This document shows positions 1-63,313 of a DNA stretch of 64,000 nt, piece after piece. Where the stretch lies: NCBI GenBank assembly GCA_027624315.1, contig JAQBXX010000004.1, positions 442 through 64,441 on the forward strand, given 5' to 3'. A model generated the notes under the pieces. That model saw only the letters and a list, made by a program, of their open reading frames with translations. It was not told where the DNA came from and ran no database searches. Origin of the DNA: Pseudomonadota bacterium. Lineage in GTDB: Bacteria; Pseudomonadota; Gammaproteobacteria; SURF-13. The translations under genes were made by a program, and so were the position numbers. How positions within the stretch are numbered: the first letter of the stretch is position 1; the number at the start of each line of letters is the position of its first letter.

Positions 1-14
1 AAACGCTCCTCGTT

Positions 15-40
15 ACTCGCTACTAGCCACTCGCCACTGT
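15..40. repeat. Heptamer inverted-array element, one arm only (other arm presumably before the window)
   Basis: ACTCGCT ACTAGCC ACTCGCC ACTGT, 2 nt from the ychF stop. Confidence 0.8.
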
Positions 41-9068: not shown

Positions 9069-9167
9069 TCAACGCAAAGACGCTAAGACGCCAAGCAGGC
9101 GAAAGTTCTTTGAGAAGATTATTTTTTGGAAGTTATATACCTTGGCGTCTTAGCGTCTTTGCGTTGA
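9069..9167. repeat. Octamer inverted-array element, copy 1
   Basis: Perfect 27-bp arms TCAACGCAAAGACGCTAAGACGCCAAG / CTTGGCGTCTTAGCGTCTTTGCGTTGA around an AT-rich loop. Confidence 0.9.
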
Positions 9168-27242: not shown

Positions 27243-27360
27243 AACGCAAAGACGCGAAGACGCAAAGATATAGAATCTAATGATTGTTTCCGCACTTTAA
27301 GCACTCGGTGGCCCACCTTGCCACATGAATTATTCCTTTGCGTCTTCGCGTCTTTGCGTT
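27243..27360. repeat. Octamer inverted-array element, copy 2
   Basis: Perfect 25-bp arms AACGCAAAGACGCGAAGACGCAAAG / CTTTGCGTCTTCGCGTCTTTGCGTT. Confidence 0.9.
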
Positions 27361-27383
27361 AAGGCTTTTTTAAAATTAATCTC

Positions 27384-28085
27384 ATGACATTAAAAATTCC
27401 CAAGATGGTGTTGATAGACCTGGACGGCACGCTGGTCGACAGCGCGCCCGATCTCGCCTATTGCGTGGACGAAACGCTTAAACACCTGGGCCTGCCGCCG
27501 CAAGGATTGGCGCGCGTGCGCGACTGGGTCGGCAACGGCGTGGAAAAGCTCATGCGCCGCGCGCTCACCGGTGACATCGACGGTGAACCTGATGTCGCCC
27601 TGCTCAAACGCGCCATGCCGGTTTTCCTGGAGCTATATGAGGGCAACCTCGCGCAGCGTAGCCATTTATTTCCCGGCATACGCGAAGGTATCGCGCTGCT
27701 TAAGGCGCAAGGCATTGCGTTGGGTTGCGTCACCAATAAAATCGCGCGTTTCACCGAGCCGCTGTTGAAACAGCTCGGCGTGCGCGATGCCTTCGCCATC
27801 GTGGTCAGCGGCGACACGCTGCCACAGAAAAAACCGCATCCCGCGCCGCTGCTGCACGCGGCACAGTTTTTTAACGTGGCGCCGCACGAGTCGCTCATGG
27901 TGGGCGACTCGGTGCACGACGTGGAGGCCGCGCGCGCCGCCGGTTTTCAGGTGGTGTGCGTGAGCTACGGCTACAACCACGGCAGCGACATCCGCGCCGC
28001 CCAGCCTGACGCAGTGATAGATTCTCTGCTAGAATTACCGAAGCTGTTTGATGCGAGTGGCGAGTGGCTAGTAGCGAGTGGCTAG
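27384..28085 (+). CDS. gph: Phosphoglycolate phosphatase
   Basis: [19 protein letters not shown]; rpe-gph-trpE order. Confidence 0.94.
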
Positions 28086-28119
28086 GAAAAACGTTTTTCC
28101 CTCGCCACTGGCTACTCGC
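28053..28119. repeat. Heptamer inverted-array element
   Basis: GCGAGTGGCGAGTGGCTAGTAGCGAGTGGCTAG - GAAAAACGTTTTTCC - CTCGCCACTGGCTACTCGC. Confidence 0.85.
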
Positions 28120-28131
28120 TCCTGCCTTAAT

Positions 28132-29649: not shown

Positions 29650-30227
29650 TGATCGACAACTACGATTCCTTCACCTACAACCTGGTGCAATATCTGGGCG
29701 AGCTGGGCGCGGACGTGCGCGTGTTCCGCAACGACCGGATATCCACCGCCGAAATCAAAAAACTCGCGCCCGCGCAGATCGTCATCTCGCCGGGGCCGTG
29801 CACGCCGAATGAGGCGGGCGTGTCGGTGGATGCGATCAAGCAGTTCGCGGGGAAAATCCCGCTGCTCGGCGTCTGCCTTGGTCACCAGAGCATCGGCCAG
29901 GCGTTCGGCGGCAAGATCATCCACGCACGCGAACTGATGCACGGCAAGACCTCAATGATTTATCACACGGGCAAGGGTGTGTTTAAAGGTTTGCCGAGCC
30001 CGTTCGAGGCGACGCGCTATCACTCGCTGGTGATTGAAAAAGAAACGCTGCCGGACTGTCTGGAGATCACCGCGTGGACGCAGGACGCGCAAGGCAAGCT
30101 GGACGAGATCATGGGCGTGCGCCACAAGACACTCAATGTTGAGGGTGTACAGTTTCACCCGGAGTCCATACTCACGCAGTATGGGCACGATTTACTGAAG
30201 AATTTTTTACAAGCAAGTGGCGAGTAG
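29640..30227 (+). CDS. trpG: Anthranilate synthase component II (glutamine amidotransferase)
   Basis: [26 protein letters not shown]. Confidence 0.95.
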
Positions 30228-30283
30228 CGAGTGGCTAGGGAAAAACACTTTTACTCGCCACTAGCCACTCGCAACTAGCTACT
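30216..30283. repeat. Heptamer inverted-array element
   Basis: AGTGGCGAGTAGCGAGTGGCTAG - GGAAAAACACTTTT - ACTCGCCACTAGCCACTCGCAACTAGCTACT. Confidence 0.85.
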
Positions 30284-30292
30284 GAGATAACC

Positions 30293-31317: not shown

Positions 31318-31469
31318 CAACGCAAAGACGCGAAGACGCAGAGAATACGAAGACGGTATGGTTCAAGAAGTTATGATTAGATCATTTCCGCCTTCTACTC
31401 TGCCTGGAGCAATCCCCAGTGGGACTTTAGCAGCCAAAAAAATCTTTGCGTCTTGGCGTCTTTGCGTTG
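31318..31469. repeat. Octamer inverted-array element, copy 3
   Basis: CAACGCAAAGACGCGAAGACGCAGAGA ... TCTTTGCGTCTTGGCGTCTTTGCGTTG, about 100-bp loop. Confidence 0.88.
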
Positions 31470-31483
31470 AGACTTGTTGATAC

Positions 31484-32730: not shown

Positions 32731-32873
32731 CTCAACGCAAAGTCGCCAAGACGCCAAGACGCCAGGGTTTATGATAAGTAATCCGATTCAACCAAGGTAC
32801 CCATTCTCGCCTGAAATGCCTGCTGCCTTGACCGGCAGCAGTAATGTTTTTGGCGTCTTTGCGTCTTTGCGTT
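32731..32873. repeat. Octamer inverted-array element, copy 4
   Basis: CTCAACGCAAAGTCGCCAAGACGCCAAGACGCCA ... TGGCGTCTTTGCGTCTTTGCGTT. Confidence 0.85.
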
Positions 32874-36185: not shown

Positions 36186-36267
36186 CTCAACACAAAGCCG
36201 CCAAGACGCGAAGGTTTTTAGGCTATGTCTCTTTGCGTTCTCTGCGCCTTAGCGGCTTTGCGTTGAG
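36186..36267. repeat. Octamer inverted-array element, copy 5 (degenerate)
   Basis: CTCAACACAAAGCCGCCAAGACGCGAAG ... GCGCCTTAGCGGCTTTGCGTTGAG. Confidence 0.75.
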
Positions 36268-36287: not shown

Positions 36288-37064
36288 ATGAACCACACAC
36301 TGCCCACCATCAGTCTGCGCTGGATACCCGTCTGGCGGCGCAACTTTCTGGTCTGGCGCAAACTGATCGGGCCCGCGCTGCTCGGCAATTTCGGCGAGCC
36401 GCTGCTCTACCTGCTCGCGCTCGGTTACGGCCTCGGCAGCTTCGTGGGCGAGGTCGGCGGCTTGTCTTACAGCGTGTTCCTCGCCGCCGGCATCGTCTGC
36501 GGCAGCGCCATGAACACCGCCACCTTCGAGGGTCTCTATTCCGCCTACACCCGCATGGCGCACCAGCAGACCTGGGGCGGCATGCTGGCCACGCCGCTCA
36601 GCGTGGATGACATCGTGCTGGGCGAGATGATCTGGGCCGGCACTAAGAGCCTACTCTCGGCGGCCCCCATCCTGCTGGTCGCGGCGCTGCTCGGCCTGGT
36701 GCACGGCTGGGCCGCGCTGTGGGTGCTGCCCGTGGTGCTGCTGGCTGGCGTCTGTTTCGGCGCGCTCGCGCTGGTGGTGACCGCGCTGGCGAAGAGCTAC
36801 GACTTCTTTCTGTATTACTTCACGCTCATCGTGACACCGATGTTTCTGTTCAGCGGCGTATTTTTCCCGCTCGACGGCATGCCCATGGCGGTGCAATGGG
36901 GCGCGCAGGTGCTGCCGCTCACCCATGCCATTGCCATCGTGCGCCCGCTCATGACCGGCCAGCCGCTGCCCCACCTCCTGCCGCACCTGCTGGTGCTGCT
37001 GGGGTATGGCGCTGTCGCCTTTTATCTCGCCATCGGCCTGTTGCGGCGACGCTTGTTGGCCTGA
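36288..37064 (+). CDS. ABC-2 permease (NodJ-like)
   Basis: VWRRNFLVW, EPLLYLLALGYGLG, PMFLFSGVFFP. Confidence 0.9.
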   Translation: MNHTLPTISLRWIPVWRRNFLVWRKLIGPALLGNFGEPLLYLLALGYGLGSFVGEVGGLSYSVFLAAGIVCGSAMNTATFEGLYSAYTRMAHQQTWGGMLATPLSVDDIVLGEMIWAGTKSLLSAAPILLVAALLGLVHGWAALWVLPVVLLAGVCFGALALVVTALAKSYDFFLYYFTLIVTPMFLFSGVFFPLDGMPMAVQWGAQVLPLTHAIAIVRPLMTGQPLPHLLPHLLVLLGYGAVAFYLAIGLLRRRLLA

Positions 37065-37101
37065 CCCGCGCCCGGCATACGCACAGGAAAGGGCATACGC
37101 C

Positions 37102-37130
37102 TTGCCGCGGATGGGCATATCCTGTATTAT
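37102..37130 (+). promoter_or_regulatory. Sigma70-type promoter of rplM-rpsI
   Basis: TTGCCG-N17-TATTAT. Confidence 0.6.
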
Positions 37131-37184
37131 TTCAGACCTTTCGTGCCGTGCCTTGCCTTGTTATATTTTTAGGAGCAGCTTTAC

Positions 37185-37613
37185 ATGAAGACCTTCAACG
37201 CCAAGCCGGAAACCGTGCAGCGCGACTGGTATGTGATGGACGCCACCGGCAAGACCCTGGGCCGGCTCGCCGTCGAAATCGCGCGCCGTCTGCGCGGCAA
37301 GCACAAGGCCGAGTTCACGCCCCATGTCGATACCGGCGACTACATCGTGGTCGTCAACGCCGAGCAGGTGCGGGTGAGCGGCAACAAGCTGGCCGACAAG
37401 CTGTACCAGCATCACACCGGCACCATCGGCAACCTGAAGACCACCACCCTGGGCAAGCTGCTCGTCAAGGCCCCGGAGCGCGTACTGGAAAAGGCGGTCA
37501 AAGGCATGCTGCCGAAAAATCCGCTCGGACGCGCCATGTTCCTCAAGCTCAAGGTCTACAAGGGCGCCACGCACCCGCATGCCGCGCAGCAGCCGCGCCC
37601 GCTCGACTTCTAA
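37185..37613 (+). CDS. rplM: 50S ribosomal protein L13
   Basis: [25 protein letters not shown]. Confidence 0.98.
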
Positions 37614-37637
37614 TTCAAATTCAATACGGATTCCCTC

Positions 37638-38030
37638 ATGACAGACAACATACATTACAGCACCGGGCGCCGCAAAAGTGCGACCGCGCGCGTGTTTCTC
37701 AAGCCCGGCAAGGGCGTGATCACGGTCAACAACCGTACCCTGGAAAACTACTTCGGGCGCGAGACCTCGCGCATGATGGTGCGCCAGCCGCTGGAAAGTG
37801 TGCAGCTCGGTGACCGGTTTGAAATCAACGTCACCGTCAGTGGCGGCGGCGCCACCGGTCAGGCTGGCGCTATCCGCCACGGCATCACCCGCGCCCTCAT
37901 GTCCTACGACGAAAGCCTGCGCCCGGTATTGCGCAAGGCCGGCTTCGTCACCCGCGATGCGCGTGAAGTAGAGCGCAAGAAAGTCGGCCTGCACAAGGCA
38001 CGCAAGGCGCCGCAGTATTCGAAGAGATAG
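37638..38030 (+). CDS. rpsI: 30S ribosomal protein S9
   Basis: [25 protein letters not shown]. Confidence 0.98.
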
Positions 38031-38436
38031 TAGCGAGTTGCTAGTAGCTAGTTGCTAGCAACGACATGGAGGCGCTTGAGAGGCTGGAGGTATGGAAGCG
38101 CAGCAGTCGCCTCTGTGTTGATATCTACAAGAACTTTGATAAGTGCACCCATTACGGATTCAAAGATCAAATAAGCCGCGCCGCTTTATCAATACCCTCC
38201 AACATTGCTGAAGGTTATGAACGTGATTTCCGAAAGGAACGCATCCGCTTCCTGAGAATAGCCAAAGGCTCTTGTGGCGAGCTTTGGACACAGCTTAACA
38301 TCGGTATAGCGGCGGAATTTATAGAAAAGGCAGTGGGTCTGGCCTTAGCCCAAGAAGCAGCAGAGTTATCGAAAATGCTGCAAGGGCTGATTAAATACTA
38401 CCAAAAAGCGGATAGTCCCTAGCTACTCGCTACTGT
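38029..38436. mobile_element. Heptamer inverted-array element carrying a four-helix-bundle gene
   Basis: Left arm AGTAGCG AGTTGCT AGTAGCT AGTTGCT AGC (38029-38059); right arm CTAGCTACTCGCTACTGT (38419-38436). Confidence 0.75.
38066..38422 (+). CDS. Four helix bundle protein (23S-rRNA-IVS-protein/TIGR02436-like family)
   Basis: LEVWKRS, FKDQISRAALSIPSNIAEG, FLRIAKGSCGELWTQL; more AT-rich than its flanks. Confidence 0.9.
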   Translation: MEALERLEVWKRSSRLCVDIYKNFDKCTHYGFKDQISRAALSIPSNIAEGYERDFRKERIRFLRIAKGSCGELWTQLNIGIAAEFIEKAVGLALAQEAAELSKMLQGLIKYYQKADSP

Positions 38437-38442
38437 TTTTAT

Positions 38443-38516
38443 TGGGGGATCGTCTAGCGGTAGGACTACGGACTCTGACTCCGTTAACCGAGGTTCGAAT
38501 CCTCGTCCCCCAGCCA
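38443..38516 (+). tRNA. tRNA-Gln(CUG)
   Basis: TGGGGGA/TCCCCCA acceptor stem, ACGGA-CTCTGAC-TCCGT anticodon arm, GGTTCGAATCC, CCA end. Confidence 0.96.
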
Positions 38517-38523
38517 TACAACT

Positions 38524-38598
38524 ACAGTGGCTAGTGGCGAGTGGCTAGTAGCTAGGAACAACCAACCTCGCCACTCGCTACTCGCTACTCGCCACTGT
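38524..38598. repeat. Heptamer inverted-array element (empty)
   Basis: ACAGTGGCTAGTGGCGAGTGGCTAGTAGCTAG - 11 nt - CTCGCCACTCGCTACTCGCTACTCGCCACTGT. Confidence 0.9.
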
Positions 38599-38601
38599 CT
38601 T

Positions 38602-39180
38602 TCAAGTCCACAACGCCTCACCCCGCGCCGCGCGCGCCGCGATCTCCTGCTGAAACGCCGGCGGCCCGAAGCCGAACCACTGCCCCCCCGACGAGTAGAT
38701 AAACGGGCGGACGTGCTTGATGGAATAGGCCTCATACCAGTCCAGCATGCGCTGGTCCGGGTCGCGTCCGGCGGACACCAGCACATCCACCGGTTTGCCG
38801 CGCCAGATCGAGCGGCCGGTGAGCACGATCACGCTGCACTGCTCGGGCTTCATCCACTCCGGCAAATGGCTGCCCGCCTCGGCCCAGCCGCAGAAGAAGA
38901 CGCGGCACGGGTCTTCCGGGCGCTTTTCATGAATGGTGCAGCGATGGCCGTCGCTGTACGGGCAGGGATGGCCGAGGGAGATGTCATTCCCCAGCACGCG
39001 CGTCTTCAGCCAGCCGTCGCAGCACAGCGAGCAGTCGCCGCAGGGGCGGATGGCGGTGGTCGCGGTGGTGGGCGCAGAGGCTGCCGGTGTGGCAGCGCCG
39101 TGGCATTTTTTGTATTTCAGGCCGCTGCCGCACGGGCAGGGGTCGTTGCGTCCGGGGGTGTTCAGGATGGCCTCATCAGC
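38602..39180 (-). pseudogene. SEC-C motif plus Cys-cluster protein lacking an evident start codon
   Basis: Frame reads [28 protein letters not shown]...[13 protein letters not shown]...CP...[17 protein letters not shown]; no in-frame ATG found before the SEC-C motif. Confidence 0.6.
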
Positions 39181-39234
39181 TTGACAACATGTCAGATCAT
39201 TATAAACTAGATAAACTAGTCTGCAAACCAGACT
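39181..39234 (+). promoter_or_regulatory. Promoter and operator of the phd-vapC module
   Basis: TTGACA-N16-TAAACT, then inverted repeat AGTCTG-CAAAC-CAGACT. Confidence 0.6.
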
Positions 39235-39251
39235 GAATGGAGGGGTGTGTC

Positions 39252-39491
39252 ATGAAAACCGTCGGCGCCTTTGAAGCAAAAACCCATTTGTCCCGCCTGC
39301 TGGATAAAGTCGAACAGGGGGAAAAGATTACCATAACCCGGCACGGAGCGCCCGTCGCCAGGCTGGTGCCGGTTGAAACGGAGGAAAAGCCCGACGTTAA
39401 AAAGGTGATTGAGGAAATCCGGGCCTTTCGCAAAGGTAACAAACTGAGGGGCCTTTCGCTGCGTAAAATGATTGAAGAAGGGCGGGCTTGA
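39252..39491 (+). CDS. Phd/YefM-family antitoxin
   Basis: MKTVGAFEAKTHLSRLLDKVEQGEKITITRHG. Confidence 0.92.
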   Translation: MKTVGAFEAKTHLSRLLDKVEQGEKITITRHGAPVARLVPVETEEKPDVKKVIEEIRAFRKGNKLRGLSLRKMIEEGRA

Positions 39492-39907
39492 TGCCGAAGC
39501 TGGTTCTGGATTGTTCGGTTACCATGGCGTGGGCGTTTGATGATGAAAATGATGCCTACGCTGATGGCATACTTACTCTGCTTGAGCAAGGCCAGGCACT
39601 GGCGCCATCCATCTGGCCTTTAGAGGTTGCCAATACGCTATTGATGGGAGAGCGAAGAGGGCGGCTTACCGAGGCGAAAACACGCTGGTTTATAGGCAAG
39701 CTCAAAGGCTTGCGGGTAACGGTTGACGCAGTTGGGCCGAACCAGATTTTTGGCACCCTGTTGAGCCTCGCGCGCGAGCATAAACTTTCCAGCTACGATG
39801 CCGCTTATCTTGATCTAGCCCTGCGCGAAGGGCTACCGCTCGCTACCCGCGACCAAAAGCTGCGTCTGGCCGCGCGCCACTGCGGTGTACCCTTGGCGGG
39901 GAAATGA
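39488..39907 (+). CDS. vapC: VapC PIN-domain toxin
   Basis: LVLDCSVTMAW, WPLEVAN, YDAAYLDLA, LATRD; overlaps the antitoxin stop. Confidence 0.9.
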   Translation: MMPKLVLDCSVTMAWAFDDENDAYADGILTLLEQGQALAPSIWPLEVANTLLMGERRGRLTEAKTRWFIGKLKGLRVTVDAVGPNQIFGTLLSLAREHKLSSYDAAYLDLALREGLPLATRDQKLRLAARHCGVPLAGK

Positions 39908-51658: not shown

Positions 51659-51861
51659 ACAGTGGCTAGTGGCGAGTAGCTAGTGGCGAGAAAAGGAATG
51701 GATACCTCGTCACCGCCTTTATTAAAGCAAAGCCCGCTGGACGCGGGCTTAAAAGTTTTTGAAGCAACTTTAAGTGCTGCTTAATTTCCATAATTGATAA
51801 AATATCTACACATGTTTATTCGTAAGTTTTGCGTTGCTAGCCACTCGCTACTAGCTACTGT
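51659..51861. repeat. Heptamer inverted-array element with an about 146-bp AT-rich loop
   Basis: ACAGTGGCTAGTGGCGAGTAGCTAGTGGCGAG ... CTAGCCACTCGCTACTAGCTACTGT. Confidence 0.85.
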
Positions 51862-63193: not shown

Positions 63194-63313
63194 GCAGTGG
63201 CGAGTAGCTAGTGGCGAGTTGCGAGTAATGAGGATTTATTGTTCATGGATATTCCTGATGAATAAGCTTGGGAAGCAGTCCCTCGCTACTAGCCACTAGC
63301 TACTAGCCACTGC
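63194..63313. repeat. Heptamer inverted-array element
   Basis: GCAGTGGCGAGTAGCTAGTGGCGAGTTGCGAGT ... CTCGCTACTAGCCACTAGCTACTAGCCACTGC. Confidence 0.87.

Follow-up and report, generated by a model that had tools for sequence, protein, structure and literature searches.

A four-helix-bundle gene between inverted heptamer arrays in a gammaproteobacterial rplM-rpsI-tRNA-Gln unit: a tentative intervening-sequence-type cassette

Why should a small gene, lying between a ribosomal-protein gene and a tRNA gene, be enclosed on both sides by tandem seven-nucleotide repeats that face each other in inverted orientation? The question is raised by a stretch of 64,000 nucleotides (nt) of the gammaproteobacterial contig JAQBXX010000004.1 (Pseudomonadota bacterium, lineage SURF-13; GenBank assembly GCA_027624315.1, positions 442 to 64,441 of the forward strand), here called the window, in which an open reading frame (ORF) of 118 amino acids stands between rpsI and the gene for tRNA-Gln. 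We find that this ORF encodes a four-helix-bundle protein of the PF05635 family, that arms of the same kind occur without the gene elsewhere in the window, and that members of the family in many phyla are bracketed by inverted arrays of their own. Our answer, offered tentatively and with somewhat less than even confidence, is that the locus holds an intervening-sequence-type cassette, a PF05635 gene set in inverted 7-nt arrays of about four units, resident in the rplM-rpsI-tRNA-Gln mRNA/tRNA unit. That such a cassette is mobile and that the protein binds its arms, we infer.

The arrays reach into the coding sequences that they adjoin. The left array begins at 38029 and has four AGTWGCK units (38029-38056), the first of which overlaps the stop codon of rpsI (TAG, 38028-38030); the right array, CTAGCTACTCGCTACT at 38419-38434, includes the stop codon of the four-helix-bundle ORF (TAG, 38420-38422). 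An inverted-repeat search returns arms of 16 nt that are 94% complementary, and in the predicted RNA fold their pairing grows to about 21 bp around the ORF, the arms being paired in the minimum free energy and the centroid structures alike. A consensus scan detected no promoter-like or terminator-like site between rpsI, the ORF and the tRNA, which fits read-through transcription from rplM. In an Rfam scan of positions 36500-39500 the tRNA is the sole match, and the element is not placed in a helix (25 or 45) of a 23S rRNA gene.

The same units recur in the window. A degenerate pattern of two AGTWGCK units has 26 matches where 0.12 are expected, a count reached by none of 100 shuffles, and these matches make up the four-helix-bundle locus and six further sites. 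A six-frame hmmsearch found no PF05635 relative at any of the six, leaving one loaded copy within 64 kb. The original prediction, made from the letters of the window, had described the 118-amino-acid ORF between inverted arrays, the stop codons within them and the six gene-less sites, and it proved right in every particular.

What does the gene encode? The protein matches PF05635, a family named '23S rRNA-intervening sequence protein' (E 3.5e-32, 111.2 bits, cut-off 33.8), as its sole Pfam family, as well as TIGR02436, 'four helix bundle protein' (E 4.2e-32, 110.6 bits, cut-off 24), and NF008912 (161.3 bits, cut-off 124); used as a query it matches 5611 clusters. An AlphaFold2 model (pLDDT 95) has helices at residues 8-23, 30-52, 56-82 and 88-114, and Foldseek aligns it with Xcc0516 (2GSC, TM score 0.88), BT_0352 (2RLD, 0.80) and Avd (4DWL, 0.78), a protein of diversity-generating retroelements (DGRs), so that both the family and the structural kinship to Avd named in the prediction hold. 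The entries of the solved relatives Xcc0516 and BT_0352 contain five chains each. The motif RxxxSxxxNxxE, quoted as conserved in the family (Lin 2006; Zhang 2013; in PMC3936711), is present as R38, S42, N46 and E49 within ...QISRAALSIPSNIAEG..., and these four columns are invariant or nearly so in our alignments A2 and A4. No nuclease, recombinase or transposase fold or motif was recognised in the protein with Pfam, NCBIfam, Foldseek, PADLOC or PHROGs. A phage or defence assignment was likewise considered and found unsupported, phage tblastn, PADLOC and PHROGs all being without a match. We know of no function for this intervening-sequence-encoded family since 1993.

Is the bracketing peculiar to this locus? 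A profile-guided genome scan provided a sample of 80 loci from about 20 phyla, for which alignment A2 replaced a broader one (A1) that was too divergent. Bracketing was scored by matching the two 130-nt flanks in inverted orientation and without gaps, the best match counting at a score of at least 12, with other genes of the same loci as controls. By this measure, the homologue check that the prediction had proposed comes out clearly, 59% of 78 PF05635 genes being bracketed versus 3% of 113 control genes, and strict tandem arrays lie on at least one side of 41% versus 6%. With a tolerant detector, 93 flanks bear arrays, of period 7 in 81 (87%) and of period 8 in nine, and the arrays typically have four to five units (median 4.5). 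The 5' arm is rich in G (35%, against 14% C), and the 3' arm is its mirror. Neighbouring genes are co-directional in about 80% and the median gaps to them are 57 and 50 nt, so small that the cassette fills the whole intercistronic space. The units themselves are highly diverse, with no heptamer core common to all phyla. None of the 40 diverse homologue loci that were checked lies in an rRNA gene; the location behind the family's name is the exception. Inverted arrays also flank plasmid-borne homologues in Nostoc, Geminocystis, Picosynechococcus (between cas10 and cmr3), Riemerella and Azospirillum, where the units differ again (GGGAAAA, GGAGATAA, AAGGTTC, GGACAGA), and arrays in direct orientation accompany the homologues of Pseudanabaena (between cas6 and cas4) and Gemmatirosa.

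Several of these loci deserve mention in their own right. The plasmid cassettes of Pseudanabaena (L033) and Picosynechococcus (L035) split conserved operons, parting cas6 from cas4 and cas10 from cmr3; that cas loci can hold PF05635 genes was noted by Zhang et al., who gave no explanation (PMC3936711). Downstream of the Bosea cassette (L042) the next gene starts with the NuoD motif NFGPQHPAAHGVLR, and cassettes of Rhizobium (L046) and a member of the Parvularculaceae (L057), which follow the same upstream gene end, may share the Bosea site; the heptamer units differ from one of these cassettes to the next. Some pure heptamer arrays near PF05635 genes are very long, reaching at least 13 CCTAGAA units or about 30 GGTCAGT/GGCAGTC units, and a Patescibacteria contig has three copies of AGGGTTT, the plant-type telomere repeat (L016:205-300, L095:3435-3646 and L045:3387-3411 in all). 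The explanation that the arrays supply stop codons in all frames was rejected: it fits units that contain TAG, and the units of many lineages hold no stop (GGCAGTC, GGGGTGT). The searchable literature yielded no paper that links the family to flanking heptamer arrays, apart from a note on strain variation in Coxiella.

How old is the copy at rpsI? The closest relatives of the protein are 94% (L200) and 87% (L001) identical, and 23 close homologues (57-87% identity) came out of a genome scan, in metagenome-assembled genomes of Gammaproteobacteria and in Thiohalophilus thiocyanatoxydans (DSM 16326, L021). In all 23 a tRNA-Gln(CTG) follows within a few tens of bases 3' of the gene, and rpsI lies 5' of it wherever the flank is long enough. 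Two of three further orthologue clusters show the order rplM, rpsI, four-helix-bundle gene; the third (P0023), on a contig too short to reach rpsI, has a downstream porin gene in common with the other two. L200 is syntenic with the window downstream as well (SEC-C, PhdYeFM/PIN). Pairwise distances between the four-helix-bundle proteins follow those between the RpsI proteins (Spearman rho 0.58, p 2e-16), and dN/dS between close pairs is 0.03-0.14. The gene is under purifying selection, and these values together indicate that it encodes a functional, vertically inherited protein. Its GC content is 47.6% versus 61.8% in the window, and the orthologues are likewise GC-poor relative to their own loci, despite vertical inheritance. 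One orthologue (L023:3001-3400) has a premature stop and is probably a pseudogene; its left heptamer arm and tRNA-Gln are retained.

Relatives with an empty site were also found. A scan with RpsI revealed 20 gammaproteobacterial loci in which rpsI is followed by a spacer of 9-129 nt, tRNA-Gln and a terminator (Steroidobacteraceae, Allochromatium, Methylococcaceae, Salinisphaera, Rhodanobacter and others), and neither the four-helix-bundle gene nor heptamer arrays occur at any of the 20. Given that the orthologous loci have both, arms and gene were gained or lost together, in agreement with the prediction, which had regarded them as one unit and had asked for such sites. The 20 empty and more than 23 filled sites belong to different deep lineages, a pattern that fits one ancient gain or loss, and one gain in an ancestral rpsI-tRNA-Gln spacer would be the simplest history. 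Judging from this comparison, the window copy is an old resident whose recent mobility is unsupported; the word 'mobile', which the prediction had applied to the cassette, does not suit this copy on a recent time scale, in view of its synteny, its correlation with RpsI and its low dN/dS.

Within the clade the arms have changed rapidly, yet they remain related. Arrays stand on both sides of the gene in every orthologous locus, with units that vary by lineage (AGTAGCG, CTAGGNN, CGAGGNN and others). In fixed flank windows across the clade the commonest 4-mers are CGAG (7.7-fold enriched) and CTAG (44-fold enriched), and successive C[GT]AG cores stand exactly 7 nt apart in 82 of 100 spacings; by this spacing, the clade-wide unit is a fixed 4-nt core with three free positions. 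The mean pairing energy is -46.0 kcal/mol for cognate arms, -35.0 for non-cognate arms and -27.6 for shuffled ones. Comparison of L200 with the window reveals a 49-nt insertion in the right arm, which forms an extra nested array hairpin and alters the C-terminus of the protein (L200:430-560), and, in the hairpin past the tRNA, a change of CGAG/CTAG to CAAG on both arms in concert.

The association of array and gene extends beyond the arms. Away from the cassette, 12 period-7 arrays occur in 96 kb of the gammaproteobacterial clade that carries the rpsI-linked gene versus 2 where the rpsI neighbourhood lacks it (257 kb, also gammaproteobacterial; p 8e-6, kinship ignored), and diverse PF05635 loci have 0.68 per 10 kb. 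Arrays of period 6 and 8 are rare both with and without the gene. The dispersed arrays often have the unit of the local arms (L044, L049, L059, L089, L095).

The features of the window are collected in Table 1.

Table 1. Arms, hairpins and genes of the window, in order of position (window coordinates)
Feature	Position	Strand	Remarks
C-rich arm of an empty hairpin	9..39		cut by the window edge
8-nt array hairpins (AAGACGCN)	9070-9167, 27243-27361, 31321-31470, 32733-32873; possibly 36195-36258		next to trp genes
Empty heptamer hairpin between HAD hydrolase gene and trpE	28053..28124		stop of upstream ORF inside left arm
Empty heptamer hairpin between trpG and trpD	30213..30284		trpG stop TAG 30225-30227 inside left arm
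Sole promoter-like site, upstream of rplM	37102..37130	+	consensus scan only
rplM (ribosomal protein L13), first gene of host operon	37185..37613	+	ORF; PF00572 in orthologous loci
rpsI (ribosomal protein S9)	37638..38030	+	ORF; PF00380 in orthologous loci; stop TAG 38028-38030
Left arm (5', G-rich): AGTAGCG AGTTGCT AGTAGCT AGTTGCT AG, then inner end CAACG	38029..38062	+	
Four-helix-bundle gene, PF05635/TIGR02436, 118 amino acids	38066..38422	+	profile matches, model, selection
Right arm (3', C-rich): CTAGCTACTCGCTACTG	38419..38435	+	pairs with 38029-38044; holds stop codon of the ORF
tRNA-Gln(CTG)	38443..38516	+	about 7-8 nt (TTTTTAT) past right arm
Empty heptamer hairpin just past tRNA-Gln	38524..38598		33-nt arms, 82% complementary, 9-nt loop
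Heptamer arms around 145-nt AT-rich non-coding cargo, between DUF494 (smg) and topA (minus strand)	51660..51860		
Heptamer arms around 53-nt cargo, between trkA and the next gene	63195..63312		

Two of the gene-less sites resemble the loaded one more closely at their inner ends. The inner boundaries of the hairpins at 51660-51860 and 63195-63312 (GCTAGCAACG, AGTCCCTCGCTACT) are nearly those of the loaded cassette (GCTAGCAACG, AGTCCCTAGCTACT), which hints that both may be derivatives by internal deletion. At the protein level no degraded PF05635 remnant was found in the 145- and 53-nt cargos, the short identities being confined to the inner boundaries; the 145-nt cargo contains a terminator-like hairpin. 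Reading of the sequences beside the arms at all seven sites found no direct repeat that would amount to a target-site duplication, and the elements end in CAG...CTG. Three host ORFs, those of the HAD hydrolase (stop codon at 28083-28085), trpG (30225-30227) and rpsI (38028-38030), receive their stop codon from a heptamer array, and the last few codons of the first two come from the array as well. The neighbours of the four-helix-bundle gene are rpsI, tRNA-Gln, an ORF whose counterpart in L200 has a SEC-C motif (the window's own ORF has no Pfam match) and, downstream at 39237-39907, a pair formed by a PhdYeFM antitoxin and a PIN-domain toxin, which is kept in L200.

A second family of hairpins shares the window. 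Its arms are built of 8-nt units (CAACGCAAAG ACGCNAAG ... CTTNGCGT CTTTGCGTTG), with 12 pattern matches versus 0.87 expected; they end in CAACGC...GCGTTG and enclose AT-rich cargos of 45-90 nt. Around gph, trpE, trpG, trpD and the gene that follows, each of the intercistronic gaps inspected is occupied by hairpins of the two families, and the overlapping trpE/trpG junction is without one. Our own expectation, that 8-nt arms about 370 nt apart would enclose a PF05635 paralogue, was wrong. A gapped metagenome scan for 8-nt arms 355-385 nt apart gave ten loci, four of which (L320, L321, L323, L328) hold a GxxExxY protein (TIGR04256; PF13366, PD-(D/E)XK superfamily), the rest enclosing non-coding repeats; one of the ten also has a PF05635 gene, flanked by heptamer arrays (GGAGATC / GATCTCC). 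Eight plasmid GxxExxY genes (L330-L337) are wedged between host genes, for instance between fabD and fabG or between radA and the next gene, and most have repeats on their flanks. These are inverted arrays of 9-nt units in Bacteroides and in Bernardetia, an array of 8-nt units in Sphingomonas, and direct repeats in Prevotella and a fusobacterium. To judge by its anatomy, a GxxExxY gene between 8-9-nt arrays looks like a parallel type of cassette.

How might the host operon carry an insert of this kind? The four-helix-bundle gene, without a promoter of its own, would be read through from rplM. In the transcript the arms would anneal to an imperfect duplex of about 21 bp, bringing the rpsI stop codon beside the tRNA leader and looping out the ORF. 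By homology of design with the 23S intervening sequence of Coxiella, RNase III would cut the arm duplex, and cleavage would release the rplM-rpsI mRNA, a separate four-helix-bundle mRNA and a tRNA-Gln precursor; given such a release, the insert would be harmless to the host operon. The Avd-related protein, by analogy with Avd, probably binds array hairpins, its own and the empty ones, and the arrays would drift in length and sequence through slippage and correction between the arms.

The precedent is worth stating in full. In Coxiella burnetii the 23S intervening sequence has a 28-bp stem of terminal inverted repeats with the S23p ORF in its loop, and the stretch directly upstream of the ORF has two to three tandem GACAGAT heptamers (the number varies with the strain) and a single degenerate copy. 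Rapid amplification of cDNA ends and work in vitro both placed the RNase III cut where the first repeat begins (Warrier et al. 2016, PMC4990558). Since this anatomy is the same as that of the four-helix-bundle cassette, the idea of an RNA stem cut by RNase III has experimental precedent. The original prediction knew of no mechanistic description of such a system; the Coxiella work already describes part of one.

Several results nevertheless weigh against the reading of the locus as an intervening-sequence-type cassette. The stability of the whole-region RNA fold is not significant relative to shuffles (z = -1.5), about 18% of arm positions are mismatched, and some orthologues (L005, L019, L021) show no advantage of cognate over non-cognate arms in pairing. 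Mismatches of the G:U type number 78 and those of the A:C type 87, with no excess of the former, and the counts are 24 and 23 in the gammaproteobacterial clade alone; by these counts the arms bear no mark of selection specific to a stem in the sense-strand RNA, and they resemble an inverted repeat at the level of DNA. The test neither proves nor excludes an RNA stem. The Coxiella precedent speaks for the stem proposed in the prediction, to which the mismatch spectrum lends nothing. A minority of homologues (L033, L037, L038) have flanks that are directly repeated or free of repeats. Searching in the opposite direction, from array to gene, arrays of three AGTRGCK units occur in more than 119 places in many phyla; of 118 loci of 8 kb chosen by such arrays, 1 contained a PF05635 gene, at a distance of 7 kb. 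Arrays without the gene are therefore vastly more numerous than loaded ones, the link between gene and array is one-way by adjacency, and, with arrays so far in excess of PF05635 genes, the arms need not be specific to the four-helix-bundle protein. Likewise, the existence of at least two unrelated cargos weakens the idea of arms that serve solely as binding sites for this protein.

A bolder form of the cassette reading, which we consider improbable, would make PF05635 pentamers the missing trans-acting partner of bacterial heptamer arrays: the ring would read the 7-nt units at about one per subunit, the gene would lie inside its own sites, and the empty operon hairpins would be further targets, in the manner of REP/RAYT systems or of TRAP. 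The typical array length of four to five units fits one unit per subunit. If true, it would define, together with the GxxExxY genes in 8-9-nt arrays, a new class of array-bracketed mini-elements in intercistronic spacers and rRNA helices.

Might the arms belong to the host rather than to the gene? On this account they are ordinary host-wide intercistronic array hairpins, comparable to repetitive extragenic palindromes (REP) and to the short tandemly repeated repetitive (STRR) sequences of cyanobacteria, which act as mRNA stabilisers, terminators or processing sites; selfish or domesticated genes such as PF05635 and GxxExxY would survive there, insulated, and the function of the protein would be unrelated to the arms. 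Such a relation would account for the more than 119 places with three AGTRGCK units and the single PF05635 gene, 7 kb away, among 118 such loci, for the 7- and 8-nt hairpins that fill successive gaps in the gph-trpE and trpG-trpD-trpC region, for the different cargo, GxxExxY, which 8-nt arrays enclose in 4 of 10 metagenome loci and 9-nt arrays or direct repeats enclose on plasmids, and for units so diverse that they have no core across phyla. Yet bracketing by arrays is about 20 times as frequent for PF05635 genes as for other genes of the same loci (59% vs 3%), and the period that accompanies PF05635 is 7 (87%), that of the GxxExxY examples 8-9. Moreover, the empty rpsI-tRNA-Gln sites offer no hairpin to lodge in, and gammaproteobacterial rpsI neighbourhoods without the gene are nearly devoid of heptamer arrays. 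We regard this account as possible, if rather doubtful.

Alternatively, the arrays may be a repeat system of DNA, either one like REP and the REP-associated tyrosine transposases (RAYTs) or one of miniature inverted-repeat transposable elements (MITEs) with an autonomous master; the PF05635 gene would be the master copy, and its protein would act in trans by recognising, spreading or maintaining the arrays, or by recruiting host enzymes such as reverse transcriptase, as Avd does. RAYT genes, too, are flanked by inverted copies of a dispersed repeat. The arrays dispersed near PF05635 genes have the unit of the local arms; period-7 arrays number 12 in 96 kb with the gene against 2 in 257 kb without it (p 8e-6), although that co-occurrence test ignores phylogeny; the C[GT]AG core at 7-nt spacing with its three free positions looks like a recognition motif; the symmetric mismatch spectrum is as expected of a DNA repeat; and the family holds homing-endonuclease sites in the rRNA of the candidate phyla radiation (CPR). 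In the protein, however, no fold or motif of a nuclease, recombinase or transposase could be recognised, no target-site duplication accompanies the seven sites, and the window has one loaded copy in 64 kb and an 8-nt array family without a gene in the window. Both the window copy and the alphaproteobacterial copies between nuoC and nuoD are old, syntenic residents rather than recent insertions. On balance, a system acting on DNA is unlikely.

That the locus is a chance resemblance or an annotation artefact, a spurious ORF between unrelated low-complexity repeats, can be dismissed with near certainty. Nothing speaks for it except the usual warning that short inverted repeats are frequent, and it is refuted by the 26 array matches against 0.12 expected, the Pfam and NCBIfam matches, the pLDDT of 95, the dN/dS of about 0.1 and the return of the same arrangement in isolates and in complete genomes from many phyla.

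What is gained by reading the locus as an intervening-sequence-type cassette? The family ranks among the most widespread of small 'hypothetical' ones, and its recurrence in cas operons and rRNA genes is unexplained; so is the excess of tandem heptamer repeats in bacteria. The bracketing across the family, the rRNA intervening sequence as a special case of a cassette found mostly in mRNA operons, and the empty hairpins come together in one testable hypothesis. The family-wide link to 7-nt arrays, the predominance of sites outside rRNA, the dispersed empty hairpins and the parallel GxxExxY cassettes could not be found in the literature. For annotation, host ORFs such as rpsI, trpG and that of the HAD hydrolase end inside arrays, and cassettes break up operons that would otherwise be continuous, at nuoC-nuoD, cas10-cmr3 and fabD-fabG.

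How does the cassette compare with known systems? Like homing-endonuclease genes and MITEs, it is a small gene between conserved co-directional host genes whose gene-less derivatives outnumber the loaded copy, and in rRNA insertions of CPR bacteria PF05635 shares its sites with LAGLIDADG and GIY-YIG homing-endonuclease genes; the four-helix-bundle gene differs from these in having no nuclease motif, target-site duplication or sign of recent movement. With REP/RAYT systems (REPtrons) it has in common a gene between inverted copies of a lineage-specific repeat that is scattered gene-less in the same genome. In contrast, its product is a four-helix bundle of 118 amino acids and not an HUH/Y1 (IS200/IS605-like) transposase, and its repeat is a tandem 7-nt array where REP is a single palindrome. 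MacGregor (2015, PMC4679880) described abundant TAACTGA heptamer repeats in Beggiatoaceae, Cyanobacteria and Bacteroidetes and gave no mechanism. These and the STRR sequences are, like our arrays, intergenic tandem 7-nt units, abundant and lineage-specific, in the same phyla; they differ in being described mainly as direct arrays upstream of genes, and the searchable literature connects them neither with PF05635 nor with gene-bracketing inverted pairs.

In the DGR ribonucleoprotein, the RNA stem-loops that Avd binds lie next to its own gene (bioRxiv 10.1101/2023.10.23.563531). The window protein has the same fold (TM score 0.78) and pentamer-forming relatives, whereas its sequence identity to Avd is about 12%, bracketing of Avd by heptamer arrays is unreported, and no reverse transcriptase is adjacent to the four-helix-bundle gene of the window, near which no template or variable repeats came to light either, though no search aimed at them was made.

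The name of the family leads back to the 23S rRNA intervening sequences with an S23p ORF, as in Coxiella burnetii and Leptospira (Ralph & McClelland 1993; Warrier et al. 2016). The window element differs from these in lying between an mRNA cistron and a tRNA and not in rRNA, and in having arms that are also dispersed as empty hairpins; its ORF is under purifying selection, whereas that of Coxiella is decaying and probably untranslated, and its duplex is predicted, whereas RNase III cleavage in Coxiella is experimental. The likeness extends to the whole design: the loop encodes a member of the same family, inverted repeats at the ends pair into a stem of about 20-30 bp, tandem heptamers stand directly upstream of the ORF, the element has its place within a stable-RNA or ribosomal transcription unit, and inheritance within the lineage is vertical.

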